48,823 nt of DNA from Candidatus Nomurabacteria bacterium (GTDB lineage Bacteria; Patescibacteriota; Minisyncoccia; Phycocordibacterales; UBA9973): contig JACPLQ010000008.1 in NCBI GenBank assembly GCA_016186435.1, forward strand, positions 1 to 48,823, in the 5' to 3' direction. Positions 1-48,759 of this stretch are shown here, in pieces (position 1 is the stretch's first letter; each line of letters opens with the position of its first letter). A program made the position numbers and the translations under genes. Under the pieces are notes generated by a model, which was given only the letters and a program-made list of their open reading frames with translations, had not been told where the DNA came from and did not search any database.

Positions 1-1285
1 GCATGAAAATTCAAATGCTTATAAAATGATCGGCCGTCCATATTTTGACCTCCGGATTTTTACAGAGATATATGCGTCCAAGATCAACGCTAGGTTTATT
101 ATGGCGGATGAAATACTCCGACTTGAAACGATAGGAAGAGCTGATATAGATCATCTCGTTCCCCTTCACCCGTTATCTTACAGAATAGATTTTAACGGAG
201 AAATAGAGATCTCAAAAAGGAAAACAGGTGACGAAAATAATAAAGAACGTAGAAAATTTCAGATATTAAATGAAAATACTGTTCGGGAAATAAAGTCCGC
301 GCTTCTTGAAAAGAAAAATGTTTTTATTTTTTCGCTGCGCAAAGGCCTCGCTACAGAAACACTCTGCAAAGATTGCGGAGATACGGTAAGCTGTAAAAAG
401 TGCGGAGCCCCCCTCGTGCTTTACTTATCGCATCAGGGCAAAAAGAGGATGTTTGTCTGCAACCGTTGCGAGGAAGAAAAGGAAGGGGATACGTCCTGCG
501 CTTCCTGCGGAAGTTGGAATCTGGTACCACTCGGAGTCGGTACAGATACCGTGTACGAAGAAACGCGAAAACTATTTCAAAAAACTAAAATTTACAAACT
601 GGACAAAGAATCTGTAAAGACGGCTGCTAAAGCAAAAGCAATTGTAAAAGAATTTTCCGCCAAAGGCGCCGCGCCTGCCGGGTTTGGCGGGCAGGGATTC
701 GCCTCTGGCGGAGAAGGTAAAATCCTTATCGGCACTGAAATGACATTTTTTTATTTAAAAAATAGTGTTCCGATTTCTGTAATAGCTTCTTTTGATTCGC
801 TTTGGAACATACCAAGTTTTAAAATGAGCGAAAAAATTATCCAAATCATACTCTCCGCTATAAGCATCACCGAGGATAAATTAATAATCCAGACAAAGAA
901 CGATGGCGATGAGATCATAAAATCTATAAAGTCAGGCAACTTGTTGTCTTTCGTCCGCGAGGAACTGGAAGACAGGAAAAAATTAGATTATCCGCCATAT
1001 AAAAGATTTATAAAGATCACCCATACGGGCAACAAAGAAGAAACAAGGGTGGCAAGAAAAGTTATAGAGGAAATGCTTGAAGGATATTCGCCGGAAATTT
1101 TCAGCGGATTCATAGCGAGATTAAAAGGGAAATATGTAACCAACGCGCTAATAAAACTTGATCTAAAGAAATGGTCATTGCCGGAAATTTCTAGCGGTGG
1201 AAGTTTGGATAAAAATTTACTAGAAAAACTGTCTTTCTTGCCTTTCTCTTTTAATGTGCAGGTTGATCCGGAAGACTTGTTGTAA
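1..1285 (+). CDS. priA: Primosomal protein N' (PriA), 5'-partial
   Basis: Frame is open back to the window start (HENSNAYK-MIGRPY). Four CxxC pairs (CKDC, CKKC, CNRC, CASC), GVGT, ILIGT and a C-terminal YPPY match the PriA C-terminal half. Confidence 0.88.
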   Translation, partial: HENSNAYKMIGRPYFDLRIFTEIYASKINARFIMADEILRLETIGRADIDHLVPLHPLSYRIDFNGEIEISKRKTGDENNKERRKFQILNENTVREIKSALLEKKNVFIFSLRKGLATETLCKDCGDTVSCKKCGAPLVLYLSHQGKKRMFVCNRCEEEKEGDTSCASCGSWNLVPLGVGTDTVYEETRKLFQKTKIYKLDKESVKTAAKAKAIVKEFSAKGAAPAGFGGQGFASGGEGKILIGTEMTFFYLKNSVPISVIASFDSLWNIPSFKMSEKIIQIILSAISITEDKLIIQTKNDGDEIIKSIKSGNLLSFVREELEDRKKLDYPPYKRFIKITHTGNKEETRVARKVIEEMLEGYSPEIFSGFIARLKGKYVTNALIKLDLKKWSLPEISSGGSLDKNLLEKLSFLPFSFNVQVDPEDLL

Positions 1286-1328
1286 AAATTTTAATTTGTG
1301 GTATCATTTTGGCGAAGGAGGAAAGTTC

Positions 1329-1526
1329 ATGACTTGTTTCAGTAATGCACCAAAAGAGGAAAGTCACACACCAACAGCAGAAGAACAGTCTGGGTTCGAA
1401 ATTGTTGGGGGGTGCATGTCGATGCCAGCCGAGAAAGATCTTGTCGGAGTGACAACACACCGACAAGAAGGAGTAGCCGACCATGTCGGCAGAGTGGTGG
1501 AGAGAGACCACCACAATGACAAATAA
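1329..1526 (+). CDS. Small orphan protein (65 aa)
   Basis: ATG at 1329 is preceded by AAGGAGG and an extended -10 (TGG-TATCAT, ~1299-1307). No recognisable domain. Confidence 0.5.
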   Translation: MTCFSNAPKEESHTPTAEEQSGFEIVGGCMSMPAEKDLVGVTTHRQEGVADHVGRVVERDHHNDK

Positions 1527-1589
1527 TCGCCCGGATTCGGACGGAAGAAGGCCTTAGCCTTAGCTTCACCGAGACGGGCTTTCTTCTTT

Positions 1590-2297
1590 TTAGGCAACTA
1601 TTACTGTGAACTCTCCTCTCTGTTTTTCTTTATTTTTTACAAAATATTCCAAGACTTCCGCCGGAGTGCCGGTCTTAAATTCTTCATAAATTTTCGTGAG
1701 CTCGCGCGCAACGCAGACTTTTTTCTGACTCTCTTTGGGACAAAATTTTACAAGCGATTCCAAAGTTTTTAAAATCCTGTGAGGAGATTCGTAAAATGCC
1801 ATAGTCCTTTTTGACGCGATTATTTCTTTAAATAACGTTTCTCTGCCTTTCTTGTGCGGCAAAAAACCCAAAAAAGTAAATTCATGCGTTGGTAGTCCTG
1901 AAGCTGATAGTGCGGCTATAACTGCTGAAGCTCCCGGCACCGGAACCACATCTACGCTATAGCGTAGATTGGAATCATTCTTTATTTTTGATACGAGTAA
2001 TGCTCCCGGATCCGAAATCCCCGGCGTGCCGGCGTCCGACACAAGAGCTAAATTTTTTCCTTCTTTTAAAAGTTCAAATATCTTAGCCAGTTTGCTCTGT
2101 CTATAATTTTTTCCGACGACATCGTCGGATGGATAGCTCATCGTCGGCTTGTGAATGTCGTATTTATCCAAAAGCTTTTTCGTTTCCCGCGTATCTTCGC
2201 ATAAAATTAAATCTACGGTTTTTAGCGTCTCTAAAGCTCTTAAAGTTATATCTCCCATATTTCCGATCGGCGTCGCTACAATGTAAAATTTGGACAT
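1590..2297 (-). CDS. rsmI: 16S rRNA C1402 2'-O-methyltransferase RsmI
   Basis: YIVATPIGN, CEDTR, VSDAGTPGISDPG, FYESPHR, ARELTK and GEF motifs. Start set at MSKFY (2297), just after the atpC stop. Confidence 0.95.
   Translation of the reverse strand: MSKFYIVATPIGNMGDITLRALETLKTVDLILCEDTRETKKLLDKYDIHKPTMSYPSDDVVGKNYRQSKLAKIFELLKEGKNLALVSDAGTPGISDPGALLVSKIKNDSNLRYSVDVVPVPGASAVIAALSASGLPTHEFTFLGFLPHKKGRETLFKEIIASKRTMAFYESPHRILKTLESLVKFCPKESQKKVCVARELTKIYEEFKTGTPAEVLEYFVKNKEKQRGEFTVIVA
1950..1969. repeat. Perfect 20-bp palindrome inside rsmI
   Basis: ATCTACGCTA|TAGCGTAGAT, within the DSNLRYSVD loop. Confidence 0.8.
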
Positions 2298-2302
2298 CTG
2301 GT

Positions 2303-2749
2303 TTATTTTCGGTATTTCTTCGTCCGCCATTTATCGGCAATTTTCACACGGGTGAGAGAGCGCTCAAGCTCAGCTTCAAAATGCTCAAAATCTACATGTT
2401 CTTTATTTTCCATTTGCTTTTTCAATTCCTCTGCGCGAAGTTTTGCTTTTTCAACTTTCTCTTCCGTTATTTCAGAAACATGCTCGGCAAAATCCGCGAG
2501 CACAGCGACTTCAGTAATATCTTCTCCATTCTTTTTCACTTCCAAAAATCCGCCGACGATAGCCATCGGCACATGTTCACCATTCGTGAAAGCGACCACA
2601 TCCCCGGAAGTCAGAGCGGTGATGAGTGGAATATGGTCCGGTAGTACCGTAATCTCGCCAAGTGTCGTAGGCAGACTGACTTGATCCACCATTTCTTCAA
2701 ATACCAAACGCTCTGGGGTAACTATTTTTAATTTTAATTTCTTTGCCAT
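2303..2749 (-). CDS. atpC: ATP synthase epsilon subunit
   Basis: LKIVTPE, GEITVLPDHIP and GGFLEV motifs; last gene of the atp operon. Confidence 0.95.
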   Translation of the reverse strand: MAKKLKLKIVTPERLVFEEMVDQVSLPTTLGEITVLPDHIPLITALTSGDVVAFTNGEHVPMAIVGGFLEVKKNGEDITEVAVLADFAEHVSEITEEKVEKAKLRAEELKKQMENKEHVDFEHFEAELERSLTRVKIADKWRTKKYRK

Positions 2750-2752
2750 AAT

Positions 2753-4144
<1,392 letters not shown>

Positions 4145-4165
4145 TTATTAATAATTTTTAATATA

Positions 4166-4207
4166 CCCCCTCTGTCCTTCGGACATCTCCCCCTTCGCAG
4201 GGGGAGA
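4166..4207. repeat. REP-like double hairpin between atpG and atpD
   Basis: TGTCC-TTC-GGACA followed by TCTCCCCCT-TCGC-AGGGGGAGA. Confidence 0.75.
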
Positions 4208-4210
4208 AAA

Positions 4211-5101
4211 TCAACTTACACTTGCCATACCTGCGCTAATTTCCGATATCTCTCTCGTAATGTTCGCCTGTCTCGCTTTGTTGAACATCAAAGTCAGGTC
4301 GTCTATCATTTCGCTCGAAGCTTCGCTTGCATTTTTCATAGCTATCATGCGCGATGATTGTTCGGAAGCGTTTGATTCTAAAATCATCTGATAAATTTGC
4401 ATGCGGGTAATCTTTTCAGCTAGTGATTTTATCAATACATCGAAATCTCCTTCAAATAAATATTCTGTCTTAGGCCTCACCCCTACCCTCTCCTTATCGG
4501 GGAGAGGGGGAAGAAAGTCTTTTTTTAAAATGGGTAATAATTGCTTGACCGCCGGTTTTTGTGATAAAGCAGAAGTGAAATGCGTGTATGCTATGTAAAC
4601 TTTTTTATAATTGCCGTTCCTGTATTCATCTATAATAAGTTTCGTAAGAGGCAATACATCTCTTAATCCGATGTTCACATCCGGTATATCGGTAAATACT
4701 CCCATTATATTTTGATCCACTCTTCGCATAGCCACATCTCCTTTTCTGCCGACTGTTACTATATCAGCCTCCTCGCCTTCTCCTAAAAGTCTTAATGTCT
4801 GGAGCGCTAGCTTTATTACCTGTGAATTATATCCTCCGCATAGTCCGCGATTAGAAGTAATGAGAACTATGAGATTTTTTCCCTCCGCCTGCTCATTCCA
4901 GAGCGGATCGGTAGATTTTTCTATGTTTTGAGCCACAGACGCAAGAATCTCTGAAGAATATTCTGCATACAGGCGAGAAGCCAAAGTAGAAGAAACCGCG
5001 CGCTTCATCTTTGAAGCTGCTACGAGCTCCATAGCTTTCGTGATTTTCTTCGTGTTCTTCACACTCTTTATTCTTCTTTTAATTTCTTTGGTTCCGGGCA
5101 T
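4211..5101 (-). CDS. atpG: ATP synthase gamma subunit
   Basis: KITKAMELVAASK, RGLCGGYN and ARQANITREISEI motifs. Confidence 0.98.
   Translation of the reverse strand: MPGTKEIKRRIKSVKNTKKITKAMELVAASKMKRAVSSTLASRLYAEYSSEILASVAQNIEKSTDPLWNEQAEGKNLIVLITSNRGLCGGYNSQVIKLALQTLRLLGEGEEADIVTVGRKGDVAMRRVDQNIMGVFTDIPDVNIGLRDVLPLTKLIIDEYRNGNYKKVYIAYTHFTSALSQKPAVKQLLPILKKDFLPPLPDKERVGVRPKTEYLFEGDFDVLIKSLAEKITRMQIYQMILESNASEQSSRMIAMKNASEASSEMIDDLTLMFNKARQANITREISEISAGMASVS
4475..4510. repeat. REP-like element in-frame in atpG
   Basis: CCTCACCCCTA-CCCTCTCC...GGAGAGGG hairpin, read as PPLPDKERVGVR in AtpG. Confidence 0.7.
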
Positions 5102-5127
5102 AAATATTTCAAATAGAGTTTTAGACT

Positions 5128-5154
5128 CCAGATAGAGGCTAAACCTCTATCTGG
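5128..5154. repeat. 11-bp-stem hairpin overlapping the atpA stop
   Basis: CCAGATAGAGG-CTAAA-CCTCTATCTGG. Same GAGG-N5-CCTC core as the RAYT-linked REP at 42008 and 42230. Confidence 0.7.
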
Positions 5155-6652
5155 CTAGAAAGTTACTTTTAAAATCTTCTATAACTTTTTTTAATTCTTC
5201 TTCGCCTTTATCGCTCCACATTTTTTTCTCAGCAACTTCTTTATAAAATACTTTTGCATTTCGCTCGCTGTATTCTATAAGGCCATTTTCAAATGCTTTA
5301 ATTTTTTCTACCGGCACATCATCCATATATCCTTTTGTAAGAGCGTAAAGAGTGGCCACTTGGTGTTCTGTTTTAACAGGAGCGTACTGAAGCTGTTTTA
5401 AGACTTCTACGGCTCTTTTTCCGCGCTCAAGAGTTCGCTTTGTGGAATCATCCAAATCCGAGCCGAATTGAGAAAATGCTTCAAGCTCTCGGAACTGCGC
5501 CAACTCCAGTTTTAAAGTTCCAGATACTTTCTTCATAGCTTTTATTTGAGCATCTCCTCCCACACGAGACACGGAAGAACCGACGTTGACCGCCGGGCGA
5601 ATGCCTTTATAAAATAAATCGGTTTCCAAAAATATTTGCCCGTCAGTAATGGAAATAACATTCGTAGGAATGTAAGCAGAAATATCTCCGGCCTGAGTTT
5701 CAATTATCGGAAGCGCAGTGATTGAGCCGCCGCCATATTTTTCATTCCTTCGGCAAGCACGTTCAAGTAAACGAGAGTGCAAGTAAAAAACGTCTCCCGG
5801 GTACGCTTCACGGCCGGGCGGACGGCGAAGCAAAAGAGAAATTTCTCGGTATGCCACGGCGTGTTTGGAAAGATCGTCGTAAATAATTAAAACATCTTTT
5901 CCTTGGTCCATAAAATATTCTGCAATGGATACTCCAGTATAGGGAGCGATATATGCGAGAGACGCCGCTTCAGATGCCCCTGCAGAAACTATAACTGTGT
6001 ACGCCATAGCTCCGCCTTCTTCCAAACGAGCCTCAACCTTGCGGAGCTTAGAATCTTTCTGGCCGATTGAAACATACACGCAGATCATGTTCTGGCCTTT
6101 TTGATTTAAAATAGCATCAATAGCGATTGCAGTTTTTCCGGTCTGGCGGTCTCCGATGATAAGCTCGCGCTGTCCGCGGCCCACGGGAATTATGGCATCT
6201 ATGACTTTGATACCGGTAGCCACTGGCTGGTCCACAGACAAGCGAGTGACGACTCCGGGGGCAACTTTTTCAATAGGATAAGTCTTATTCGCCTTTATTG
6301 CGCCCTTGCCGTCTATCGGAGTACCGATAGCATTTACAACACGGCCCAAAATATCGTCGGAAACAGGAATTTCTAAAATTCTGCCGGTAGCTTTTACTTC
6401 ATCGCCTTCTTTTATTTTAGAAAAGTCTCCAAAGATAATTACACCTACCAAGTCTTCTTCCAAATTGAGCGCGACACCCGCAGCCCCATTTGGAAAAGCA
6501 ACCATTTCAGAAGATTTAATATCAGACAAACCGGACACTTTCGCGATCCCGTCAAATACTTCAAGAACTTTACCTATCTTCTCGGCTTTTATCTGAATAG
6601 AAAAATTTTCTATCTCTCTTTTTAAATTTTCTACGATGTTATTTGTGCTCAT
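5147..6652 (-). CDS. atpA: ATP synthase alpha subunit
   Basis: GDRQTGKT and [22 protein letters not shown] motifs. Confidence 0.99.
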
Positions 6653-6656
6653 GGTT

Positions 6657-7064
6657 TTATTTCGCGCTATGTGTTAGGTATTCTTGTAATTTCTTCATTC
6701 TATTCTTTAAGGTCAAATCTATCACTTCATCATTCACTTCTATCCGGAATCCGCCCAGCAGTTTTTCATCTATATTTTCTTTAAAAGCCACTCTCCTGCC
6801 TTCGTAGCGTTTTGATAAAGCCTCGGTAATATCCTTTTTTGTCTTTTCGCTAATTTTTTCAACACTAGACACTTTGGCGGAGATTATTTTCTCTTCATCG
6901 TTCGCTATTTTATCTAATCGGACCAGAATGTCCGCTGTTTTTGACAGCAATTTTCTTTTTGCTAAAAATCGCACAACTTTTTCATAAAATTCTGCCTTAT
7001 TCCCCTCTTCCTTAGAGGCTAAATAAATCGCGCGAGCTATGTTATTGTTTGAAAGTACTGCCAT
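6657..7064 (-). CDS. atpH: ATP synthase delta subunit (short form)
   Basis: Lies between atpF and atpA; C-terminal [21 protein letters not shown] is the OSCP/delta motif. Confidence 0.9.
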
Positions 7065-7137
7065 CCCAGTACTAAAATTTTAAATTGTTAATAATATTGG
7101 TCATTTGTTTTTTTGTGAATTTAGTACAGGACATGTA
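7065..7137 (-). repeat. 73-bp element, copy 1 (entire atpF-atpH spacer)
   Basis: Minus strand reads TACATGTCCTGTACTAAATT...AAAATTTTAGTACTGGG directly followed by ATG. Confidence 0.85.
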
Positions 7138-7599
7138 TTATAAATTATTCAAATCGGGCTTCTCTTTAATTAATTTCTCTGTCGCGAGCATTGAAAGAGC
7201 TATGATTTCTTTCTTTGCTTCCTCAACCATTTTCACTTTTTCGGCTTCAAGCGTTTTTTTGCCATTTTCCACTACTGACGCTACTTCATTCTTGGCAGTT
7301 TCAAGCATTTCTGCTCTTTTTGTCTCCGCCTCTTTCTTGCCTTCCTGAAAAATTTTATTCGCTTCGGCTTTGGCTTTGGCGATAGCTGTGTTGTATTCTT
7401 CTTCGGTTTTAGCCAGCATATATGCGTTTGTTTTTGCATCGTCAACACCCTTGGCTATTTTTTCGCTTCGCTCGGCCATAAGCTTTGACAGAGGCTTAAG
7501 GGCAAAGATATACAGTACGGCAAACACAACTCCGAAATTTATCGCTTGGGCGATGATAATTTTCCAATCTATGTGAAATGTGGAAATGATTGAATCCAT
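7138..7599 (-). CDS. atpF: ATP synthase b subunit
   Basis: AQAINF TM anchor, KPL..ER..I and a coiled coil. Start set at MDSII. Confidence 0.95.
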   Translation of the reverse strand: MDSIISTFHIDWKIIIAQAINFGVVFAVLYIFALKPLSKLMAERSEKIAKGVDDAKTNAYMLAKTEEEYNTAIAKAKAEANKIFQEGKKEAETKRAEMLETAKNEVASVVENGKKTLEAEKVKMVEEAKKEIIALSMLATEKLIKEKPDLNNL

Positions 7600-7605
7600 G
7601 GTTTT

Positions 7606-7688
7606 ATTCTCCTCTTGAGGAGTACCCTTTAGGGGGAGGTGGACAAATACTTCCACCCCGCCCGAGGGGCACCCCTCAAGAGGGGAAT
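7606..7688. repeat. Inverted REP doublet (REPIN/BIME-like) between atpE and atpF
   Basis: Forward copy TCCACCCCGCCCGAGGGGCACCCCTCAAGAGGGGAA (7652-7687) and a diverged inverted copy at ~7607-7643. Confidence 0.8.
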
Positions 7689-7689
7689 C

Positions 7690-8817
<1,128 letters not shown>

Positions 8818-8831
<14 letters not shown>

Positions 8832-9087: not shown

Positions 9088-9176
9088 TTGGCGCAATTAT
9101 ACACTTTTAGTGAACTTTTTGCGAGAGGAAATCCTAATGCGCTCCGCCGTTATTTTTTAGGGCAAATGGAGCGGGG

Positions 9177-10033: not shown

Positions 10034-10146
10034 ACCTATATAATACTAAAAATTACAGTAAAGAGCAAACTACAGTTAATAAGTATTTCTATGTTGCAAA
10101 ACAATTATTTAACTAGGCAAGACCTAGTCATTACTCGGGAAAATAA

Positions 10147-14232: not shown

Positions 14233-15051
14233 TTACTCTTCCTCATCCGCACCCACCGCGCCGGACTCAATATCGGAAATTATGCCGCCGATGTCCCCTT
14301 CCATAATGCGCGGCAGATTGTGCCAGGATTTTTTGATGCGATGGTCGGTGACGCGGTCCTGCGGAAAGTTGTAGGTGCGGATTTTTTCACTGCGGTCGCC
14401 GGTGCCAATCTGGCCTTTGCGAATGCCTGCATGTTTCGCCGCTTCTTTTTCTTCTTCAAGCTGTTGAAGCTTGTTTGTTAAGATTAGCATTGCTTGTTCG
14501 CGATTTGCAAGCTGGCTTCTTTCGTTGGTTGACCTCACATCTAGGCCAGTAGGCTTGTGAATAATGCGCACTGCGGTCTCCACCTTGTTTACGTTTTGCC
14601 CGCCTTTGCCGCCGGAACGTGAATACTCCATTTCAAAATCCGCCGGATTGACAACAAGATTTATTTTTTTTCTCATCGGTAGGACTGCGACCGATGCGGT
14701 AGAAGTATGCACTCGCCCATTCTTTTCCGTCGCCGGCACTCTCTGCACTCGGTGCACGCCCGTCTCATAGCGCATCAACTTGTAAACATTTTTGCTGGCC
14801 CCGCCAGAGGCGGGGCCTTTTATTTCAAAACTTGCCTCCTTGTATCCGTTCAGGTCGCTTTTGGATTCATAATTCACTTTCCACTGCCACCTTTGCGCCT
14901 CCGCATATTTTTCGTACATATGCGCAAGTTCCCATGCAAAAAGGCTGGCCTCATCGCCGCCGGCACCAGCCCGCACTTCTAAAACTATTTCATTAGAAAA
15001 TTCTTCCGTTTCTACTTTTTTTTTAGTTTTTTTCCACTCTTCCCAATCCAT
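14233..15051 (-). CDS. prfA: Peptide chain release factor 1, N-terminally shortened
   Basis: EVRAGAGGDEA, HRVQRVPATE (PxT) and GGQ motifs; 272 aa. Confidence 0.95.
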   Translation of the reverse strand: MDWEEWKKTKKKVETEEFSNEIVLEVRAGAGGDEASLFAWELAHMYEKYAEAQRWQWKVNYESKSDLNGYKEASFEIKGPASGGASKNVYKLMRYETGVHRVQRVPATEKNGRVHTSTASVAVLPMRKKINLVVNPADFEMEYSRSGGKGGQNVNKVETAVRIIHKPTGLDVRSTNERSQLANREQAMLILTNKLQQLEEEKEAAKHAGIRKGQIGTGDRSEKIRTYNFPQDRVTDHRIKKSWHNLPRIMEGDIGGIISDIESGAVGADEEE

Positions 15052-15270
15052 TTACTTTTTAGCTTTAACAGAAGCAGCTTTGCGCTTGTTGAATCTTTCC
15101 ACGCGTCCGGCAGTGTCCATTATTTTTTCATTTCCAGTATAAAAAGGATGACAATTACTGCAGATTTCCATTTTAATTTCAGGCATTGTGGAACCAACCA
15201 TAAAAACAGCTCCGCAGGCGCAGGTTGCTTTCGTATTTAGATCATATTTTGGATGCGTATCTTTTTTCAT
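15052..15270 (-). CDS. rpmE: 50S ribosomal protein L31 (Zn type)
   Basis: MKKDTHPKY, CACG, CSNCHPFYTG and GRVERF motifs. Confidence 0.97.
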   Translation of the reverse strand: MKKDTHPKYDLNTKATCACGAVFMVGSTMPEIKMEICSNCHPFYTGNEKIMDTAGRVERFNKRKAASVKAKK

Positions 15271-15277
15271 AAAATTT

Positions 15278-15317
15278 AAGGACTGTCCTTGGAGAAACTC
15301 TCTTAAGGACTGTCCTT
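15278..15317. repeat. Two copies of the AAGGACTGTCCTT mini-palindrome
   Basis: Copies at 15278-15290 and 15305-15317; the core recurs at 43470-43480. Confidence 0.75.
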
Positions 15318-15334
15318 GTAAAGGTATCACGATT

Positions 15335-16708: not shown

Positions 16709-16726
16709 AGTTTTTATTGTAGCATA

Positions 16727-16746
16727 CCTGCCTGCCGGTAGGCTGG
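16727..16746. repeat. CCTGCC-family imperfect palindrome
   Basis: CCTGCCTGCC|GGTAGGCTGG; related to the nested insert in priA (674-695). Confidence 0.6.
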
Positions 16747-30033: not shown

Positions 30034-31374
30034 CTACTCTTTTCGAAGCCATTCCGGATCTTGCCTGACAAGTAAAGAGCTTTTATCCGCTCCATCTTTG
30101 AGAATAGCTTCTACTGTGCGTTCCATGCGCGTCCCCTGCGAACCCTTTACTAGAACAATATCTCCTTTCCTTATAAAAGTTTTCATAAAATTTCCCGCCT
30201 CGCGCGAATTTAGAAATTCCAAAATGCTTCCAGGATTCATTCCCAGCCCGCCAGAGGACGGGTGAATTTCTAAAGCGCCTTCTTTTATAGATTTTGCCCG
30301 CGGACCTACTACAATGAGCGTATCTCCCGGATTATTTAAAATTTCTTTTGCAAGTTTGCCGATATTTTTATGAGCTTCTATGGTATGTTTGCCGAGCTCC
30401 AGCATGTCTCCCAAAATAGCAATTTTTCTCCCCCGAGGGGAACCCTCGGGAAATACTTCACCTAGAGTTTTTAGCGCCGACTCGCAGGCAAAAGGAGAAG
30501 AATTGTAGGTGTCATCAATAATAAGGCTTTCTTTTATTCCGGGAAGGATGCGCATCCTTCCCGGCGGAACATCGTAATTTTTAAGCGCCAGAGCAGCTTC
30601 TACCATATTGAATTTCAAGCCGGAAGATAGAGCGAGGGCCGCGAGCGAAGCATACACATGATTCCGCCCGAATACTCCTTCTATGACGACAGGCAGGCTT
30701 TTTCCTCCTTCATCAACACGGAAAACTACTCCTTCCGGAATCCCTTTTTCATTATATGAAATACTTTCACCCGAACCCAGAATATTCGCGCCCTCTTTGA
30801 ATCCATAAGTGATTACCAGACATTTTGTTTTTGATTTCATTTCCAGCACCGCTTCATCGTCCGCATTCAGCACTAAAAGCCCGCTTGGTTTCAATGTTTT
30901 TATAAGCTGAGATTTTTCTTCTATCAGGTGTTTGCGCGAGGTAAAAAATTCTATATGAACAGGAGTCTCGCCTATCGCCGTCATTATAACTGCATCAGTA
31001 TTGAGCCATGAAGCGGTTTCTTTCATGTCATTTGGCTTGCCTATGCCTACTTCCAAAATTAACCACTCCGGATATTTGTGAGGATAAATTATGAGCCACA
31101 ATCCTTTCAAAATATTTTTAATCCATACTGCGGGATTGTTCCATCCATTCGGAAGGCCCAAGACCGTCAGAGGAAGTCCGAGTTCGCTGTTAAAACTCTT
31201 CTCGCTTTTGCGGACATAAGCTATTTTGGAAAGTACGGCATAAACGGCATCTTTGGTAGAAGTTTTGCCGAGCGAGCCCGTGATAGCTATTACTTTTGGC
31301 TTGTATCGCAAAAGCGCAAGCTTAGATTCTGCTTTTAGAGTTTGAGCTAATATTTTTTTAAAAATAAGTTTCAT
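30034..31374 (-). CDS. murF: MurF ligase
   Basis: ITGSLGKTSTK, DDTYNSSP, LGDMLELG and VKGSQ motifs; dcw context. Confidence 0.92.
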   Translation of the reverse strand: MKLIFKKILAQTLKAESKLALLRYKPKVIAITGSLGKTSTKDAVYAVLSKIAYVRKSEKSFNSELGLPLTVLGLPNGWNNPAVWIKNILKGLWLIIYPHKYPEWLILEVGIGKPNDMKETASWLNTDAVIMTAIGETPVHIEFFTSRKHLIEEKSQLIKTLKPSGLLVLNADDEAVLEMKSKTKCLVITYGFKEGANILGSGESISYNEKGIPEGVVFRVDEGGKSLPVVIEGVFGRNHVYASLAALALSSGLKFNMVEAALALKNYDVPPGRMRILPGIKESLIIDDTYNSSPFACESALKTLGEVFPEGSPRGRKIAILGDMLELGKHTIEAHKNIGKLAKEILNNPGDTLIVVGPRAKSIKEGALEIHPSSGGLGMNPGSILEFLNSREAGNFMKTFIRKGDIVLVKGSQGTRMERTVEAILKDGADKSSLLVRQDPEWLRKE

Positions 31375-33453: not shown

Positions 33454-34361
33454 GTTTTTTGAATAATTCTTAATTTTGCGCTTCTTGCTCTGGGATTATT
33501 CTTTATTTCTTCAGTGCTTGGTGTAATTGGTTTCTTTGTAATAATTTTTGCCTCTCTATTTCCTTGTCCGCCAGAGGCGGATCCGCCTTTGGCGGAATAA
33601 AATCTTTTTACTATCCTGTCTTCTAGGCTATGAAAACTTATTACTGCCATTCGTCCCCCTGGATTCAGTGAATCAAATCCTTTACGCAAACCTTCCTGCA
33701 AACTCCCCAATTCATCATTGACTGCTATGCGTATCGCCTGAAAAGTCCGTGTGGCGCAGTGCATTTTCTGTCTCTTATATGCTCTGCCTACAGCCCTTTC
33801 TATAATTTTCACTAAATCAAAAGTGGTTTTAATCTCTGCCTTATCTCTTGCTTCCGTAATCGCTTTAGCTATCCTTCGGCTAAATTTTTCCTCGCCATAG
33901 CCATAAATAATATCGGCTAAATTTTTTTCTTCCCAAGTATTTACTATTTCTTTTGCAGTCAGGTACTCTTCGCTTGGGTTACTTTTCATAGTCATTAAAA
34001 GCGGCTCGTCTTTTTGAAAAGAAAATCCTCGTCCGGAATTTTCTAACTGATCTGAACTCAAGCCCAAATCAAAAATAATCGCATCTGCCTGCAAATCTCC
34101 AAGTTCGCGAAAGTTTTGATTCAGGAAGGTCACATTGCAACCTGACATTTTTTCTTTCCCCCGCTCTATTGCACTTCTGTCTTGGTCAATGGCGATAATT
34201 TTTATATCCGGATAGTTTTTACAAACCTGAAGAGCATGTCCGCCGCCGCCGAAAGTCGCATCTATAACAACTTTTTTTGAATCCCCGCTTTGCGCCGAGG
34301 CAGGTAAATTTAGGCCGTCTATTGTTTCTTTTAAAAGAACTGTCTTGTGTACGCTTTCCAT
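33450..34361 (-). CDS. rsmH: 16S rRNA m4C1402 methyltransferase RsmH
   Basis: DATFGGGGH, DLGLSS, RTFQAIRIAVNDEL and NPRARSAKLR motifs. Confidence 0.97.
   Translation of the reverse strand: MESVHKTVLLKETIDGLNLPASAQSGDSKKVVIDATFGGGGHALQVCKNYPDIKIIAIDQDRSAIERGKEKMSGCNVTFLNQNFRELGDLQADAIIFDLGLSSDQLENSGRGFSFQKDEPLLMTMKSNPSEEYLTAKEIVNTWEEKNLADIIYGYGEEKFSRRIAKAITEARDKAEIKTTFDLVKIIERAVGRAYKRQKMHCATRTFQAIRIAVNDELGSLQEGLRKGFDSLNPGGRMAVISFHSLEDRIVKRFYSAKGGSASGGQGNREAKIITKKPITPSTEEIKNNPRARSAKLRIIQKT
33567..33596. repeat. 30-bp twin-hairpin element in-frame in rsmH
   Basis: TCCGCC-AGA-GGCGGA + TCCGCC-TTT-GGCGGA, encoding SAKGGSASGG. Confidence 0.9.
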
Positions 34362-35462: not shown

Positions 35463-36946
35463 TATTCTTGTTTTGGCTTCATTAAAGGAAACAATTGTGT
35501 TTCTCGCAAAGGTTTGTCCACTAAAAAAGCGAACAGGCGGTCGCCGTAGGCGAAGCCGAAGGCGGGCGGCATGCCGTATTCCAGCATCTCCACGAATTCA
35601 TCGTCGGGCATCATGGCCTCTTGGTCCCCGGCTTCAATTAATTTCTTTTGAATTTCAAATCGTTCGTTTTGGTCGATGGGATCATTTAATTCCGAAAAAC
35701 CGTTGGTCATTTCCGCGCCCGCAAGGAGTAGCTGCACGCGCTCGGTCAAAAGCGGATTTTCCGGTTTGGCTTTGGAAAGCGGCGACACCAGCTTCGGCAC
35801 GTCAATGAGCCAAGCCGGCCCGGTAATCTGCTTCCGGCAATACTTCCAAAGAGAATCCATCAAGCGCTCCATATTATCGCCCTCATATTTCACTTTAAGC
35901 TCATCCAATTTTTTCATCATTTCTTTTGCGGTTGTCTCTAGAACATCCACTCCGGTAATTTTTTTGATAGTATCCGCATAAGTCATGCGTTCCCACTTGG
36001 ACGAGAGATCAATCTTCTCGCCGTGCGTCTCGAATACCAAAGTGCCGAAGGTTTGTTTGGCCACTTCTTTAATCATGCGCTCCGTGAAATCCATCCCCTG
36101 CTTGTAGTCCATAAAGCCCGCGTAAAATTCCAAATTGGTAAATTCCTGCGTGTGCTCCGGGCTGGAGCCTTCGTTCCTGTAAGCGCGACCTATTTCAAAA
36201 ACACGTTCAAAGCCGGCCGCGAGCAATCGCTTCTGCCACAATTCTCCTACGGATATGCGCATATAAACATCCAGATCAAAATCGTTGTGATGCGTTTTAA
36301 AAGGCCGCGCTTCCGCGCCGCCGGTGGTGATTTCTATGGTCGGCGTTTCCACTTCCAAGAATCCTTCTTTATTTAAAAAATTCCGGGTTGCGTCCCAAAA
36401 CTTCGCCTTTTTTTTGAAAAGTTCTTTGAGCTCCGGATTCATCAGAATGTCCAAATATCTTTTTCTGAACCTCTCTTCAATGTCCACAAGCCCATGCCAT
36501 TTTTCGGGCATTGGCCGCAGGCTCTTGGAAAGCATCCGCCAGTCGCGCGCCTCAAGAGTTTTTTCGCCGCGGTTGGTCTGAAAAAAAGTCCCGTAAAGCT
36601 CCACAAAGTCCCCGATGTCGGCAACCTCGTTCCAGAAGTTTAGTTTTTCTTCGCCCAGCACGTCTTTTTTCAAAAGTCCCTGAAAAGAACCGGTGCCGTC
36701 GTAGAGCGTTATGAAAATTATCGCGCCCTGGCCGCGGATGGACATTATTCTGCCCGCAATCCACTTTAAATTCCCCTCTTCTAGGGTGCCCTTTTGGGCG
36801 GGGTGGACAAGTTTGTCAAAATTTAGTATAGCGTCAGCTAGAGAAATTTCCCTTTTAGACTGCGCCGGGTACGGGTTTATGCCCTTCTCTTTCAGAAGCT
36901 TTAATTTTTTGATTCTTGTGTCCCTAATTTCATCAATTGAAGACAT
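35462..36946 (-). CDS. lysS: Lysyl-tRNA synthetase (class II)
   Basis: OB fold, GGAEARPF, YRNEG and YGMPP...G.DRL motifs. Confidence 0.98.
   Translation of the reverse strand: MSSIDEIRDTRIKKLKLLKEKGINPYPAQSKREISLADAILNFDKLVHPAQKGTLEEGNLKWIAGRIMSIRGQGAIIFITLYDGTGSFQGLLKKDVLGEEKLNFWNEVADIGDFVELYGTFFQTNRGEKTLEARDWRMLSKSLRPMPEKWHGLVDIEERFRKRYLDILMNPELKELFKKKAKFWDATRNFLNKEGFLEVETPTIEITTGGAEARPFKTHHNDFDLDVYMRISVGELWQKRLLAAGFERVFEIGRAYRNEGSSPEHTQEFTNLEFYAGFMDYKQGMDFTERMIKEVAKQTFGTLVFETHGEKIDLSSKWERMTYADTIKKITGVDVLETTAKEMMKKLDELKVKYEGDNMERLMDSLWKYCRKQITGPAWLIDVPKLVSPLSKAKPENPLLTERVQLLLAGAEMTNGFSELNDPIDQNERFEIQKKLIEAGDQEAMMPDDEFVEMLEYGMPPAFGFAYGDRLFAFLVDKPLRETQLFPLMKPKQE
36771..36807 (-). repeat. REP copy in-frame in lysS
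   Basis: Minus strand TCCACCCCGCCCAAAAGGGCACCCTAGAAGAGGGGAA closely matches 7652-7687. Confidence 0.85.
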
Positions 36947-37543: not shown

Positions 37544-37701
37544 ATTCATGTATTTATTTGATTATTTTTGACTAAAACGACTAAATCCCGCTCACGGGAT
37601 TCATTGACACTTAATATTAAACTTTTTTAATAAAAAAGTCAATAAAATATTCGACGCTCGTCGGCTTGCCAATTATATTTTTTATGATAATCTTAGGCTC
37701 A

Positions 37702-37774
37702 TACCTGTCCCGTACTAAATTTTTGATTACGGAACAGGGTCGCTATTAGTAAAGTTTAAAATTTTAGTATCGGG
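37702..37774 (+). repeat. 73-bp element, copy 2 (before rpsU)
   Basis: TACCTGTCCCGTACTAAATTTTTGATTACG...AAAATTTTAGTATCGGG followed by ATG. Confidence 0.85.
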
Positions 37775-40710: not shown

Positions 40711-40765
40711 ATGTCTAGATTATAACCCACTAAAGTGTAAAAAATCAAATATGTGGGCTTTTAAG

Positions 40766-40838
40766 TACCTGTCCCGTACTAAATTTTTGATTACGTGATA
40801 TAATTGCTGATATTAAAGTTTAAAATTTTAGTACTGGG
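40766..40838 (+). repeat. 73-bp element, copy 3 (before ftsA)
   Basis: First 30 bp identical to copy 2; ends AAAATTTTAGTACTGGG followed by ATG; internal TGA-TATAAT. Confidence 0.85.
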
Positions 40839-42005
40839 ATGATAAAAAATATTTCGGTGGGAATAGACGTGGGGTCGTCCGTGACGCGAGTCGTGGTCGG
40901 AGAATTTCTAAAAGGAGAAAAAAATCCTAAGATTATCGGCGCGGGCGAATCAGCGACTTTGGGCCTTCGCCACGGATATGTTGTAAATTCTTCTCTTGCA
41001 TCAGCGTCAATAAAAAAAGCGGTAGAATCAGCGGAACAAACTTCCGGCGTAAAAATACGGCGCGCGTTTGTATCACTTTCAGGCATTACTCTCCGCGGAG
41101 AAATTAGTTCAGGCTCTGCAATTATTTCAAAAGCTGACGGCGAAGTAACTGCATTGGATATAAACAAGGCTCTCGCAGACTGCGAAGACAATCTTTCCGT
41201 AGGCAACAAAAAAATCATACATACGTACCCGATATCTTTCCGGCTGGACGGCAAAGAAGTGCTGGGGCGACTGGAAGGCATGCGCGGCACAAAACTTGAA
41301 GCCAAAGCTCTTTTTGTCACCTATTCTGTAGTTCATTTAGAGGATTTACTCGGAGCAATAGCTGAAGCCGGAGTGGAAACCATAGGTGTCATAGCTTCGC
41401 CTGTAGCCATAAGCGAGATTGTGCTAGGAGAAAAACAAAAAATAGTGGGTGTGGCGCTCGTAGACATAGGGGCAGAGACTACATCTCTTTCAGTTTTTGA
41501 AAATGGAGCCATGGTTTCTATCCATACTTTTTCTATCGGCTCTACAGACATCACAAATGATATCGCTTTAGGATTTAAAATAACTTTAAACGAAGCTGAG
41601 GAATTTAAATTTGGAAATATAGGCGAAGGATTCTCTAAGAAAAAACTGGATGAAATCATAGAAGCGCGATTGTGCGACATTTTTGAATCAATAGAAAATC
41701 ACCTGAAGAAAATAAAAAGGTCTGAGCTCTTGCCTGCAGGCATTGTCTTTGTCGGCGGAGGTGCAGGCACTCCAAACCTTATAGAATTATCTAAAGACGT
41801 TTTAAGGCTTCCGGCGAGTCTGGGCTCTACAGATATGTTTGGCAATGTGAAAACAAAGCTTCGGGATTCCACTTGGTTTACAGCTCTGGGGCTTTTATCG
41901 GCAGGAAGAGAGAGTAAGGGCGGATATTCCGATGGATCTTTCAAGGGTTTACTGCGGGATATCAAAAATACCTTTAAATCAAGCCTTAAACAGCTGATGC
42001 CCTAA
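40839..42005 (+). CDS. ftsA: Cell division protein FtsA
   Basis: GIDVGSS, VDIGAETT, ITNDIA, IIEARL and VGGG motifs, plus a C-terminal amphipathic helix. Confidence 0.95.
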   Translation: MIKNISVGIDVGSSVTRVVVGEFLKGEKNPKIIGAGESATLGLRHGYVVNSSLASASIKKAVESAEQTSGVKIRRAFVSLSGITLRGEISSGSAIISKADGEVTALDINKALADCEDNLSVGNKKIIHTYPISFRLDGKEVLGRLEGMRGTKLEAKALFVTYSVVHLEDLLGAIAEAGVETIGVIASPVAISEIVLGEKQKIVGVALVDIGAETTSLSVFENGAMVSIHTFSIGSTDITNDIALGFKITLNEAEEFKFGNIGEGFSKKKLDEIIEARLCDIFESIENHLKKIKRSELLPAGIVFVGGGAGTPNLIELSKDVLRLPASLGSTDMFGNVKTKLRDSTWFTALGLLSAGRESKGGYSDGSFKGLLRDIKNTFKSSLKQLMP

Positions 42006-42007
42006 CC

Positions 42008-42032
42008 CACTTGGAGGTTCTTCCTCCAAGTG
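42008..42032. repeat. REP hairpin upstream of RAYT
   Basis: CACTTGGAGG-TTCTT-CCTCCAAGTG; the 19-bp core is repeated exactly at 42233-42251. Confidence 0.9.
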
Positions 42033-42045
42033 TTATAATGAAAAT

Positions 42046-42345
42046 ATGTCAAGTAGAAAAATCGCTTTTGTTCCCGGAGAATATTATCACGTTTATAACA
42101 GGGGCGTGGATAAAAGAAATATATTTTCTGATAAGTCGGATATTGGAAGATTTCTGCAAAGCATGGAAGAATTTAATACGAAAAATCCTATCGGTAGTTT
42201 ATATGAACACAGCTTCGTTAAGAAAAAGAAATTTGGAGGTTCTTCCTCCAAATTGATAAAATTTATCGCTTTTTGCTTAAATCCAAATCATTTTCATTTC
42301 TTAATAACTCCCCTTGTGGAAAAAGGAATAGAGAAATTTATGCAG
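42046..42345 (+). pseudogene. REP-associated tyrosine (Y1/HUH) transposase, truncated by IS30
   Basis: GEYYHVYNRG....IF and FCLNPNHFH (HUH). Resemblance stops at KFMQ, and the catalytic-Tyr C-terminal half is absent from the window. Confidence 0.85.
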
Positions 42346-43391
42346 GTGAATTCTCTTTTGAATTGCAATGAATTAGAATTGAAATATGAAAGCAAAAAAA
42401 GTTTTCGCATTTTTCCCAAAGCGAGCGGAATGAAATATATATCCTGCGGAGAAAAGGATACTCGTATGCCGATATCGGCAGAGTGTTGTTAAGAGACTGC
42501 GGGGCGGTCTGGCGCGAGTTAAAGAGAAACAAGACCGGGGGTTCATATGATCCCCGAAAAGCCGGGCACAAATCATATGTGAGGCGGCACAATGCCAAGT
42601 ATCAAGGCAAAAAAATAGTTGAAGATACGGCGCTTCGGGTCTTTGTTGAAAATTCTCTTTTGGGCGGCCAGTCGCCGGAAGATATATCAGGAAGACTAAA
42701 ATACAAATATGAAAAAGGTCTGCTGTATGTTTCCAAAGACAGCATCTACCGGTATATTAAGTCTCCATATGGCAGACAAATCGAGGTGAAGCTCCTGAAG
42801 AAAAAGAAGCGCGGAGGCAAGCGGAAAAAACTGGGCACTCTGGACGGCAGGACTTTCATCGACCAAAGACCCAAGCGCATCAATGCCAGAATGAGAATCG
42901 GTCATGCGGAGTTTGACTTCATTGTTTCGGGAAAAACCGGAAAAGGGATATTGCTCGTGGTGATCGACAGGAAACTTCGGACTTCATTTCTGGAGCCGAT
43001 ATACAAAGTGAGCATTTCTGCCGTGCATCTGGCGGCGAGGAAAATCAAAAAGAGATACCCGGAATGGAAGACCGGCACTACAGACAACGATCTTTTGTTT
43101 GCCAGGCACAAGGAGCTAGGGAAAGAATTGGGTATTAAAATATATTTCTGCCACCCGTATCATTCCTGGGAAAAAGGCACGGTGGAGAACACCAACGGAG
43201 AAATTAGGAAGGACATTTCAAAAGGCAGCGACATATCAAAATACTCAAGGTCATTTTTCAGAAAGCTGGAAGAGAAACTGAACTGCAGGTTCATGAAATG
43301 CCTGAACTACCGCACTCCTTTTGAAACTCTAGACATCGCCCGAAAACAAAAAAATCTCCGGGAAAGGAGAAAGGGTGGGCATTGCAATTGA
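42346..43391 (+). mobile_element. IS30-family element with incomplete right end
   Basis: AATTGCAATG (42361-42370) and CATTGCAATT (43380-43389) form an inverted repeat around the transposase. Outer boundaries are approximate. Confidence 0.75.
42386..43391 (+). CDS. IS30-family DDE transposase, frameshifted near the start
   Basis: RELKRN, SPEDIS, SIYRYI, GHAEFD, TDND and HPYHSWEKGTVENTNG motifs. The HTH frame is open from 42390, but the ATG at 42386 is out of frame. Confidence 0.85.
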
Positions 43392-43559
43392 GGCCGTCGG
43401 GCGGGGGGGGATTTAGATGTTTTCATATACCATTATTGTAGCATTTTGCAAGGTGGTTTTCTACGGTGCAGGACTGTCCTTACTAGTATAATGCTTTCGC
43501 CGGGTGTCGTCGGGTGTTGGACACCCGACGAAGCTTATTTGTAATGGGGATAACTTTGC

Positions 43560-43588
43560 TTGTTTAGGTTATCGTTAGGTATTATAAT
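43560..43588 (+). promoter_or_regulatory. Promoter/operator of the lexA-MTase gene
   Basis: TTGTTT-17 nt-TATAAT ending 6 nt before the ATG; TTAGGT direct repeat at 43564 and 43575. Confidence 0.6.
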
Positions 43589-43594
43589 CAATAA

Positions 43595-46191: not shown

Positions 46192-46225
46192 AGTGCAGCC
46201 ATTCTACTCCAACCCACCCCCAAAC

Positions 46226-46444
46226 TCAATCCACCGCCAAAAGCTTACTTGGACTGCGGTGTCCATTAACAATACGAACTTTATTTATCGGCACTTCAAA
46301 ATGTTCCGCGATAAGTTCTAGGACCCGCCCATTTGCCATATTTCTCTCCGCTTTCTCACGCACTGAAATTTCGAAGTGATCTTCGTTTTTCTTTTTAACA
46401 AATTCTTTTCTCGCTCCGGCTATTACTTTCACATGTATGTACAT
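46226..46444 (-). CDS. DUF167 (YggU-like) protein
   Basis: V.V..GA, AN....L.A..F.V and G..S..K pattern. Confidence 0.88.
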   Translation of the reverse strand: MYIHVKVIAGARKEFVKKKNEDHFEISVREKAERNMANGRVLELIAEHFEVPINKVRIVNGHRSPSKLLAVD

Positions 46445-46461
46445 AATTTATTTAAAATATT

Positions 46462-48051: not shown

Positions 48052-48078
48052 GAAATTTATTCTAGCACATTTTGAATT

Positions 48079-48534
48079 TTACTTGGAAAAATTTCCGAGC
48101 TTTAGCTCCAAACATTGCGTCAGAGCCGGCGTTTCTGTCCATCCGCATTTGCCGTTTGCCTGCCGTCCGCATTCACCGCTCTTGTAACAAGAATATTCCG
48201 GCTGGTATTCACAGGTAGATACAGCGCCCGGCTCATCTGAACAAATCTGGGAACTGCATCCGCCTATATAACATCCGCCTGTAGCAGTCGCTGTAGATTG
48301 CCCTTCATCCCCGCTCACTATTTTTTCTACATATACATTGCCTTCCGGGCTGGTGCACTGGCGAGGATAACTCTCCATTACCGGATAGCCCGCTTTGACA
48401 CAGTCTTCAAAATCAGCGATAAACGTCGCTGCCTGTTCCAGCGTTTTTTGTTTCTGATATACGAAATATCCCAGCAAAGCTAAAACTGCGAGCCCTATTA
48501 TGATCCATAAAGTCATCTTGTTTTTTTCTTGCAT
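48079..48534 (-). CDS. Membrane-anchored Cys-rich extracellular protein
   Basis: N-terminal TM, FEDC..AGYPVMESYPRQC and a GGCSSQIC...CGW Cys cluster. Confidence 0.8.
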   Translation of the reverse strand: MQEKNKMTLWIIIGLAVLALLGYFVYQKQKTLEQAATFIADFEDCVKAGYPVMESYPRQCTSPEGNVYVEKIVSGDEGQSTATATGGCYIGGCSSQICSDEPGAVSTCEYQPEYSCYKSGECGRQANGKCGWTETPALTQCLELKLGNFSK

Positions 48535-48729
48535 ATGATTTTGAAATTAAAATACTAATGCTCACATTATAGTATAAGACGAACAATATAAATATTTGTT
48601 ACGGATACATCCTGCTAAAATGCGTAATAAATCTGTCACCTACTCGTCTTAATCCTTAGTAGTAGAGTAGTAGAGGCTATACTGCGGCGTGTTTCTTTGT
48701 CGAGAGATACATTTATCAATTATTTTATT

Positions 48730-48759
48730 TCCGCCAGAGGCGGATCAGCCTATGGCTGA
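48730..48759. repeat. 30-bp twin-hairpin element, intergenic copy
   Basis: TCCGCC-AGA-GGCGGA + TCAGCC-TAT-GGCTGA. Confidence 0.9.

Follow-up and report, generated by a model that had tools for sequence, protein, structure and literature searches.

How do GC-rich hairpins come to lie inside the intact reading frames of about a dozen bacterial housekeeping genes? The question is raised by the stretch of DNA analysed here (the window), which comprises 48,823 nucleotides (nt) and is the entire contig C2 of a 705,943-base draft genome (29 contigs, ~41% G+C). The genome belongs to Candidatus Nomurabacteria, and its host is a small groundwater bacterium of the candidate phyla radiation (CPR). An earlier note on this sequence had listed the hairpins and had proposed a system of repetitive extragenic palindromes (REPs) and REP-associated tyrosine transposases (RAYTs) that adds short peptides to loops of the encoded enzymes, with several hairpin families at work at once. 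Hairpins were found at all of the positions listed there, and alignments of the insertions bear out the presence of several families in about a dozen housekeeping genes. We consider it probable that many families of short non-coding hairpin repeats (15 to ~90 nt) have colonised this gene-dense CPR genome and survive in frame in loops.

In-frame hairpins in housekeeping genes

A GC-rich perfect hairpin was defined by a stem of at least 6, a loop of 3-9 and a GC content of at least 70%, and synonymous codons were permuted within each open reading frame (ORF) as a control. The ORFs of the window contained 20 such hairpins, compared with 3.5 ± 1.7 (maximum 8) in 30 synonymous-codon shuffles. The earlier note had named hairpin frequencies no higher than in codon-shuffled controls as an outcome that would speak against its proposal, and with 20 hairpins against 3.5 this outcome did not occur. 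With stems of at least 7, the window had 13 in-ORF hairpins, versus 1.2 after shuffling, and with stems of at least 8 it had 5, versus 0.2. Over the whole genome, 230 GC-rich hairpins lay in ORFs, versus 63-90 in five shuffles, and 51 of the in-ORF hairpins had stems of at least 8, versus 1-8 in four shuffles. A total of 743 ORFs were called, covering 90% of the genome (greedy calls), and 146 of them held at least one GC-rich hairpin. Since 230 of the 299 GC-rich hairpins in the genome lie within ORFs, they do not have the predominantly extragenic location by which REPs are recognised.

Pfam and NCBIfam matches agree with the names previously given to the genes concerned, namely rsmI, atpD, atpG, atpB, a release factor, an FAD-linked oxidase, gatB, obg, a Mur ligase, rsmH and lysS. 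The priA ORF matches TIGR00595 only under the curated cut-off, because the contig end truncates the ORF. For the comparison with orthologues, each protein was aligned with its counterparts in syntenic stretches, for which as many as 20 relatives belonging to the same genus and order were used. These relatives carry labels (G007, G009, G010, G012, G016 and G018), the genome of the window being G000, and contigs are labelled C1, C2 and so on. The nearest GatB relatives in public records show up to 78% identity. At 12 of the 16 intragenic sites, the alignments show an in-frame insertion of 4 to ~27 amino acids (aa) that all or nearly all orthologues lack, in agreement with the earlier prediction that the hairpins are insertions of a multiple of three nucleotides. 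The predicted patchy distribution among relatives was also found, and relatives hold the same families at other sites.

A BLAST search of the genome against itself gave 102 repeat components. Family A is a 15-nt unit (TCCGCC-NNN-GGCGGA) that occurs chiefly as a 30-nt dimer. Family B (GGGTGT-NNN-ACACCC) occupies 18 places in the genome, frequently as inverted pairs, and the elements in the FAD-linked oxidase gene, at atpB and at 7606-7688 belong to families of 4-6 copies. The intergenic copies at 7652, 16727, 43507 and 48730 are all members of repeated families. They comprise an 83-nt multi-hairpin element at the 5' edge of atpF (7606-7688; 6-copy family, self-BLAST component 5), a family C hairpin of the CCTGCC..GGCAGG type (16726-16745) with four further copies in the genome, a family B hairpin (43507-43531), and a 30-nt double hairpin that joins TCCGCC..GGCGGA to TCAGCC..GGCTGA (48730-48759).

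The insertions in gatB and prfA are clean in codon-level alignments. In gatB, a 30-nt double hairpin composed of a family E unit and a family A unit (20861-20890, minus strand; peptide SAKGGPASGW) has added exactly 30 nt (+10 aa) between TTT and GAT without duplication, and 0 of 20 orthologues have it. In prfA, the sequence GGCCCCGCC-AGA-GGCGGGGCC (14797-14817, minus strand; peptide PASGGAS, +7 aa) is a clean insert of exactly 21 nt with no flank duplication, present in 0 of 12 orthologues. A family A dimer in rsmH (33567-33596, minus strand) encodes SAKGGSASGG and gives a net gain of 7 aa that is seen in none of 29 orthologues. The element in priA is a composite triple hairpin in which a family C hairpin lies between two family A halves (656-712, plus strand; peptide SAKGAAPAGFGGQGFASGG); it adds 16 aa relative to 7 of 8 orthologues and has a paralogous composite at C6:11390-11450, and in G010 the same TTT site is occupied by a family A dimer. 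No target-site duplication, the criterion for MITEs (miniature transposable elements with inverted repeats), was found where gatB and prfA carry their clean inserts or where G010 has its insert in priA.

The gene for the FAD-linked oxidase carries a nested hairpin of ~80 nt (18538-18617, minus strand; ~+27 aa) with paralogues on C3 and C13, and the minimum free energy over the surrounding 101-nt stretch is -52.7 kcal/mol. At this site, five of 11 orthologues have no insert and four have other inserts. A second insertion in gatB is an inverted family B pair with perfect 18-bp arms (21363-21408, minus strand; +6 to +14 aa). In rsmI, the hairpin TCCGACGACATCGTCGGA (2112-2129, minus strand) adds about 6 aa, and both insert and hairpin are shared with only one of 14 orthologues, that of G018. 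Two hairpins lie in murF, one a degenerate family A-like hairpin (30247-30263, minus strand; peptide IHPSSGG, +7 aa) and the other a CCCCGAGGGGAACCCTCGGG hairpin (30431-30452, minus strand; peptide FPEG, +4 aa), and 3 of 19 orthologues have other inserts two residues away from the latter. The former is common to G009 alone among 19 orthologues, and its hairpin is more decayed there; the peptide has been kept while the stem erodes.

The remaining four sites are not counted among the insertions. The family B unit CGGGTGTTGGACACCCG in gatB (20618-20634, minus strand) brings no length change and is a replacement rather than an insert, because the length at this point equals that of 19 of 20 orthologues. 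The other three lie in hypervariable or unalignable N-terminal stretches. They are the hairpin ATCTACGCTATAGCGTAGAT in a hypervariable loop of rsmI (1950-1969, minus strand), which has three further genome copies at up to two mismatches; a polypyrimidine/polypurine hairpin (family D) in the atpG linker, listed at 4475 (4486-4508, minus strand), a region that is hypervariable across 20 orthologues; and a 42-nt imperfect palindrome of a 6-copy family by the atpB N-terminus, listed at 8760 (8758-8799, minus strand), where the orthologue N-termini cannot be aligned.

Three of the insertions are singletons: a perfect 26-nt palindrome in atpD (4011-4036, minus strand; +6 aa relative to four close orthologues), an imperfect hairpin in a loop of obg (22807-22840, minus strand; +6 to +12 aa relative to 17 orthologues), and two small hairpins in lysS (36771-36806, minus strand; +8 aa, in 0 of 14 orthologues), with no second genome copy. 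They bring up the alternative that some or all of the hairpins formed in place by template switching during replication, as quasi-palindromes or local inverted duplications, and are not copies of an element. The atpD palindrome, which has no second copy in the genome, looks like the product of a local inverted duplication: its right arm overlaps the ancestral GACAA codons, and the inserted 18 nt would be an inverted copy plus the centre. Because this right arm is ancestral sequence, local template switching is indicated for at least some singletons, and the obg and lysS hairpins are likewise without a further copy. However, most sites share 15-83 nt of sequence with unlinked loci and with other genomes, which local copying cannot yield, and the clean gatB and prfA inserts have no sequence in common with their flanks. 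Template switching therefore appears to us an unlikely account of the hairpins.

An unbiased screen covered the 30 window genes with at least five orthologues and listed all private insertions of at least 3 aa, a stem being scored when it had at least 7 pairs with at most one mismatch. The genome of the window has 17 such private inserts, 7 of them with a stem of at least 7. Over all aligned genomes, stems of at least 7 were present in 25 of 104 private inserts versus 37 of 520 random segments of the same length from the same genes, and stems of at least 8 in 16 of 104 versus 14 of 520. The stem-bearing share varies by genome, from 6 of 12 in G007 to 0 of 5-9 in G010, G012, G016 and G018. Among 120 RsmH homologues listed and aligned, 27 have rare inserts, with peptides such as GSALGG, LPAQAG and GGPAGA. 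It should be noted that a perfect 26-nt palindrome in murF (30539-30564) was rejected as an insert and used as a negative control: it encodes the conserved residues PGRMR(I/L)LPG and is therefore a chance palindrome.

The placement in loops that the earlier note had assumed is borne out in one protein. GatB was modelled with AlphaFold2 from a 21-row alignment, with a mean predicted local distance difference test (pLDDT) score of 83, and both inserts (residues 128-143 and 301-310) fall in coil in this model. Segments with pLDDT below 50 were 127-147, 287-289 and 303-307. The family B site (386-391) is likewise modelled as coil, between helices 364-384 and 393-404.

Target, frame and spread of the double hairpin

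Copies of family A within ORFs are biased in frame and filtered for stop codons. Sixteen of 21 such copies are in phase 0 and read S-A-x-G-G. The intergenic dimer ends with TCAGCC-NNN-GGCTGA, in which TGA stands in phase 0; coding copies have TCC..GGA or CCA..TGG instead. Furthermore, of 12 two-unit blocks, 10 are preceded by TTT (5') or followed by AAA (3'), each of these trinucleotides making up ~5% of the genome. The TTT (Phe) in gatB and priA is present in insert-free orthologues and therefore belongs to the target rather than to the element. Asymmetric family A dimers showed no consistent orientation relative to neighbouring genes.

Of 101 genomes sampled from the order, 49 carry the 15-nt unit of family A, in 1 to 38 copies, with reversed-pattern controls near 0. 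The present genome has 17 exact units in 706 kb, and 52 of the 101 genomes have none. The 30-nt pattern, with 24 specified bases and variable loops, was found in 21 of 201 genomes of the phylum, one of them with 16 copies, and its control gave 0. At loci from other families of the order, dimer units within ORFs of at least 100 aa are in phase 0 in five cases and in other phases in six, and seven further units lie outside such ORFs. Phase-0 units in three other genomes read SARGGSASGG or SAQGGSALGG.

A conserved double hairpin of this kind could also be a signal selected by the host, such as a DNA uptake or protein-binding site, that is spread by recombination or gene conversion and not by transposition. 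Consistent with a signal, the 24 specified bases are kept in 21 of 201 phylum genomes while the loops vary, family copies at gatB 20618 and in purD have replaced sequence in place without a change of length, and the frame preference in ORFs is strong, similar to that of the uptake sequences of Pasteurellaceae. However, DNA uptake signals occur about once per kb, far more densely than the ~17 family A units per 0.7 Mb here, and over half of the order genomes sampled (52 of 101) hold none. The copies are mostly sharp-edged net insertions, and no Rfam family matches: at the gathering score, Rfam 15 gives only two tRNAs in the window and nothing near threshold at the intergenic dimer. We regard a host signal as quite improbable.

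The repeat was also seen in groundwater metagenomes. In four runs from one study, the summed contig depth, ~10 elsewhere, climbs to 430-3800 where the rsmH dimer lies and reaches 78-840 at the gatB dimer, and many metagenome contigs with unlike flanks end at these two dimers; the repeat therefore sits in many contexts in that community. The breaking of Logan contigs at family A dimers, together with the 29-contig state of the draft, might suggest that the hairpins are artefacts of assembly or amplification in a metagenome-assembled genome. However, in-frame copies of the same families are found in genomes that were assembled independently and in the four runs, the reading frames remain open, and the murF and rsmI inserts are each common to one relative, so that we find an artefact hardly credible.

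RAYT-like genes and a possible route of copying

The genome has five matches to Y1_Tnp above the Pfam cut-off and one weak match, which lies in the window. These six divergent RAYT-like Y1/HUH paralogues share 34-51% identity and NHFH and Y..LNP motifs; the one gene that was scored with NCBIfam REP_Tyr_transpos reached 40 bits against a cut-off of 80. The window gene (42046-42492, plus strand; Y1_Tnp 18.3 bits against a cut-off of 23) can be aligned with its five paralogues up to and including the NHFH motif, loses this similarity after about codon 100 and is apparently broken there. An ORF for an IS30-family transposase adjoins it (42483-43391, plus strand; NF033563, 185 bits), and the arrangement suggests that insertion of this element may have disrupted the RAYT-like gene (42046-43391). 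Directly upstream of the gene lies the palindrome CACTTGGAGG..CCTCCAAGTG (42008-42032), which recurs within three ORFs on other contigs, gyrB among them.

A repeated palindrome is found at one or both ends of five of the six RAYT-like genes, and its sequence differs from gene to gene. Elsewhere, 13 of 14 RAYT-like loci in five other genomes of the order and 10 of 11 in the phylum sample are flanked by repeats. The C10-type palindrome, which flanks its gene on both sides, has five of its seven copies in ORFs, four of these reading (V/I)VRQDL, the C18-type occurs as dimers in three ORFs, and all 15 copies of the C26-type are intergenic. An intergenic copy of the palindrome that flanks the C24 gene is present in the window (5129-5153). 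The ORF hosts that were tested by Pfam are lepA, gyrB, purD and a ksgA-like gene. LepA (G000:C3:23502-25379) has 9 extra residues at the palindrome dimer compared with PDB 5imq_B, PurD shows no length change at its palindrome copy compared with a solved structure, and the dimer in GyrB lies in a stretch that aligns poorly with PDB. Since RAYT-flanking palindromes have copies in ORFs, a REP/RAYT-type system with in-frame copies appears to exist here.

Two more inserts were seen in LepA relative to PDB 5imq_B, one being LPHLGWGEESLP and the other a segment, read as LPGRPAG, that covers a family C hairpin. In addition, three RAYT-like ORFs contain a copy of their own flanking palindrome inside the reading frame as called (C18:5047-5065, C24:22087-22111 and C1:12887-12909), and the window gene has a degenerate palindrome copy (peptide GGSSSKL) at the matching position.

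The REP/RAYT system proposed in the earlier note thus appears to be present in part: there are RAYT-like genes, five intact-looking and one broken, with flanking palindromes that also occur in ORFs. However, the GC-rich families on which the proposal had been built flank none of the 32 RAYT-like loci inspected, and their only link to these genes is a co-occurrence that is uncorrected for kinship. It remains to ask how well the proposal in its full form, with families A-E as REPs moved by the genome's RAYT-like Y1 transposases and several enzyme-hairpin pairs acting together, accounts for the data. The six RAYT-like genes and the presence of their cognate palindromes in ORFs are in its favour. 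Enzymes of the IS200/IS605-type Y1 group insert 3' of a fixed short sequence without duplication, and family A likewise inserts 3' of a fixed trinucleotide without duplication. Family A and Y1_Tnp also co-occur. In the order sample (Spearman 0.32, kinship-uncorrected), Y1_Tnp is present in 11 of 11 genomes with at least five units versus 51 of 90 others, and in the phylum sample it is present in 16 of 21 genomes with the 30-nt element versus 69 of 180 without (Fisher p = 0.0017, kinship-uncorrected); however, genomes rich in mobile elements may simply hold both. Against this proposal, family A/E units or GC-rich perfect hairpins flank 0 of 32 RAYT-like loci (6 here and 26 in other order and phylum genomes), though most have another flanking palindrome, and 5 of the 21 phylum genomes holding the 30-nt element lack any Y1_Tnp match. 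Furthermore, family A stems are identical across classes of the phylum, whereas RAYT-flanking palindromes differ even between paralogues. The GTAG or CGTC tetranucleotide that marks the 5' foot of REP hairpins was absent from the six flanking palindromes and from family A; family B often has (C/T)GTC, but within the stem. We judge it possible, though doubtful, that families A-E are moved in this way.

In the reading that we prefer, a gene-dense genome colonised by short hairpin repeats, the repeats would fall into two classes. The first would consist of REP-type palindromes, each flanking its own RAYT-like Y1/HUH gene, some families having in-frame copies in housekeeping genes. The second would consist of 'orphan' GC-rich families, including those of the earlier note, the best defined being the 30-nt double hairpin that lies 3' of TTT without target duplication. 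Repeats would be copied to new places in the genome, possibly through single-stranded hairpin DNA handled by a Y1/HUH-type enzyme, which the orphan families may use in trans. Many copies would land in genes because intergenic space is scarce. Selection would spare those copies that keep the frame, contain no stop, have a length of a multiple of three and lie in tolerant loops, and these would be translated as short peptides rich in Gly, Ala, Ser and Pro. Palindromic elements of Rickettsia and REPs inside genes have been described as behaving in this manner.

Several observations weigh against this reading. ORFs were called by a greedy longest-ORF rule and not by a gene finder, and the genome-wide in-ORF counts depend on these calls. 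Translation of the inserts is assumed from the intact reading frames. In the contigs of the four groundwater runs, we saw no empty-site allele, no joint that removes an insert, no excision product and no recent copy; the joints listed there, which have short sides (<30), most likely come from other organisms that have the repeat. Among the runs listed as containing the stretch, none was of RNA. The closest RsmH homologue in a large protein collection is 76% identical. The inserts in rsmH and priA replace ~3 residues, which simple cut-and-insert does not predict, and the two family copies in gatB (20618) and purD substitute residues without any change of length. The palindromes in atpD, obg and lysS are singletons, and the one in atpD reuses flanking ancestral sequence. 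Conservation of family A stems throughout the phylum is unlike species-specific REPs, which co-diverge with their RAYTs, and to this are added the lack of family A/E units at RAYT-like loci and the element-bearing genomes without Y1_Tnp noted above.

A more far-reaching proposal can be offered tentatively. CPR bacteria may harbour hairpin elements that are compatible with translation and mainly inhabit coding DNA, and the 30-nt double hairpin, with stems identical across phylum classes, a position 3' of TTT, no duplication and a SAKGG-SASGG linker, may be moved in trans by a conserved single-strand enzyme (of Y1/HUH type or other) and spread between lineages. Where active, such elements would be a major source of protein indels, as in 7 of the 17 inserts private to this genome and 6 of the 12 in G007.

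In-frame palindromic elements as such are already known, both as Rickettsia palindromic elements (RPEs), reportedly described by Ogata et al. in 2000, and as intragenic REPs. Insertion sequences of the IS200/IS605 type resemble what is proposed here in that enzymes of the Y1/HUH family recognise hairpins and insert 3' of a fixed short sequence, leaving the target unduplicated; unlike them, the family A element has no coding capacity, and it is known from sequence alone. REPIN populations are intergenic and number in the hundreds, whereas the families here have 3-18 copies each, many in coding sequence. Pseudomonas REPINs and RAYTs, in the available part of the work of Bertels and Rainey, are similar in that inverted REP pairs form a longer hairpin, as do family B pairs and family A dimers, and in that several RAYT paralogues each have their own repeat family.

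RPEs are about 150 bp long and form ten families, and R. conorii has 44 insertions, a large number of which are in frame, according to the accessible portion of a 2024 review (PMC10969869). As far as the accessible portions of two papers describe them (PMC10969869, PMC3733652), they resemble the present families in that a small genome carries several palindromic families, with many copies that lie in frame within unrelated housekeeping genes and are judged compatible with the fold, and in that they have no known transposase. However, the 15-90 nt units here fall short of the roughly 100-150 bp length given for RPEs in the same portion of the literature. The RPE host is an alphaproteobacterium and not a CPR bacterium, and one family here is phylum-wide; it is on these features, rather than by sequence comparison, that the two are set apart.

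Di Nocera et al. (2013; PMC3733652), in the part of the article available, report REPs inside ORFs of several species, with dimers that encode 20-30 aa, REP ends that sometimes give a stop codon, and 'REPtrons', in which palindromes flank RAYT genes. The RAYT-like loci here are similar to the REPtrons of that text in that short palindromes, often dimers, flank the genes and some copies lie wholly in ORFs, and the TGA of intergenic family A would be a phase-0 stop, like the stop-supplying REP ends (PMC3733652). However, the REPs described in that part are tagged with GTAG/CGTC and mostly extragenic (PMC3733652), whereas the RAYT-flanking palindromes here are untagged and those of the C10-type mostly intragenic. 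A further difference is that the most abundant GC-rich families here have no REPtron.

As far as our searches reach, the new elements of the present case are the host phylum, the very short units of 15 and 30 nt, the double hairpin that targets TTT and extends across the phylum, and the mainly intragenic RAYT-flanking palindromes. Literature searches, which covered articles and not supplementary files, gave no report linking palindromic repeats, REPs, RAYTs or MITEs with Patescibacteria/CPR, and a term search of the available text of PMC6006769 gave no mention of Parcubacteria or Patescibacteria. If active, the repeats would be a sequence-defined source of loop insertions in essential proteins across a large, poorly understood bacterial branch, and would help to account for the length variation of orthologues in CPR genomes. 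Selfish DNA that can be read as a harmless peptide may in this way persist in a genome of which 90% is coding. The RAYT-like genes and their palindromes, being also inside genes, offer a testable enzyme-substrate pair for how RPE-like elements move. From a practical viewpoint, short-read assemblies of these organisms are interrupted at the repeats, which can also lead to errors in annotation that relies on alignments.

Neighbouring features of the contig

The ATP synthase operon occupies 2753-8831 of the window. With a threshold of E <= 1e-60, atpD was found in 23 of 31 genomes searched, the present genome included; these comprised 17 of 18 other genomes of the genus and 5 of 12 from other families of the order. 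The F-type ATPase thus seems to be patchy among the sampled relatives.

Repeat component 0 is formed by an AT-rich element, 80-95 nt long, whose ends are inverted (..GTCCCGTACTAAATTTTTGA .. TAAAATTTTAGTACTGGGATG). Nearly all of its 19 copies sit at gene edges, and it may be associated with promoters. Three copies lie in the window (7053-7106, 37701-37732 and 40765-40848), and 16 more are on other contigs.

The gene rpmE, for ribosomal protein L31, is located at 15052-15270 (minus strand), and its stop is immediately followed by the start of the 272-aa release factor (14233-15051, minus strand). An apparent in-frame stop inside prfA was rejected, as it is the stop of rpmE, with a short prfA directly after it. 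The release factor encoded here lacks the N-terminal ~70-90 residues that are present in orthologues from the same genus; the form in G009 is equally short. The small palindrome AAGGACAGTCCTT is present in two direct copies at 15260-15321, immediately upstream of the start of rpmE. It belongs to a 5-copy family, the core of which resembles the palindrome that flanks the RAYT-like gene on C26.

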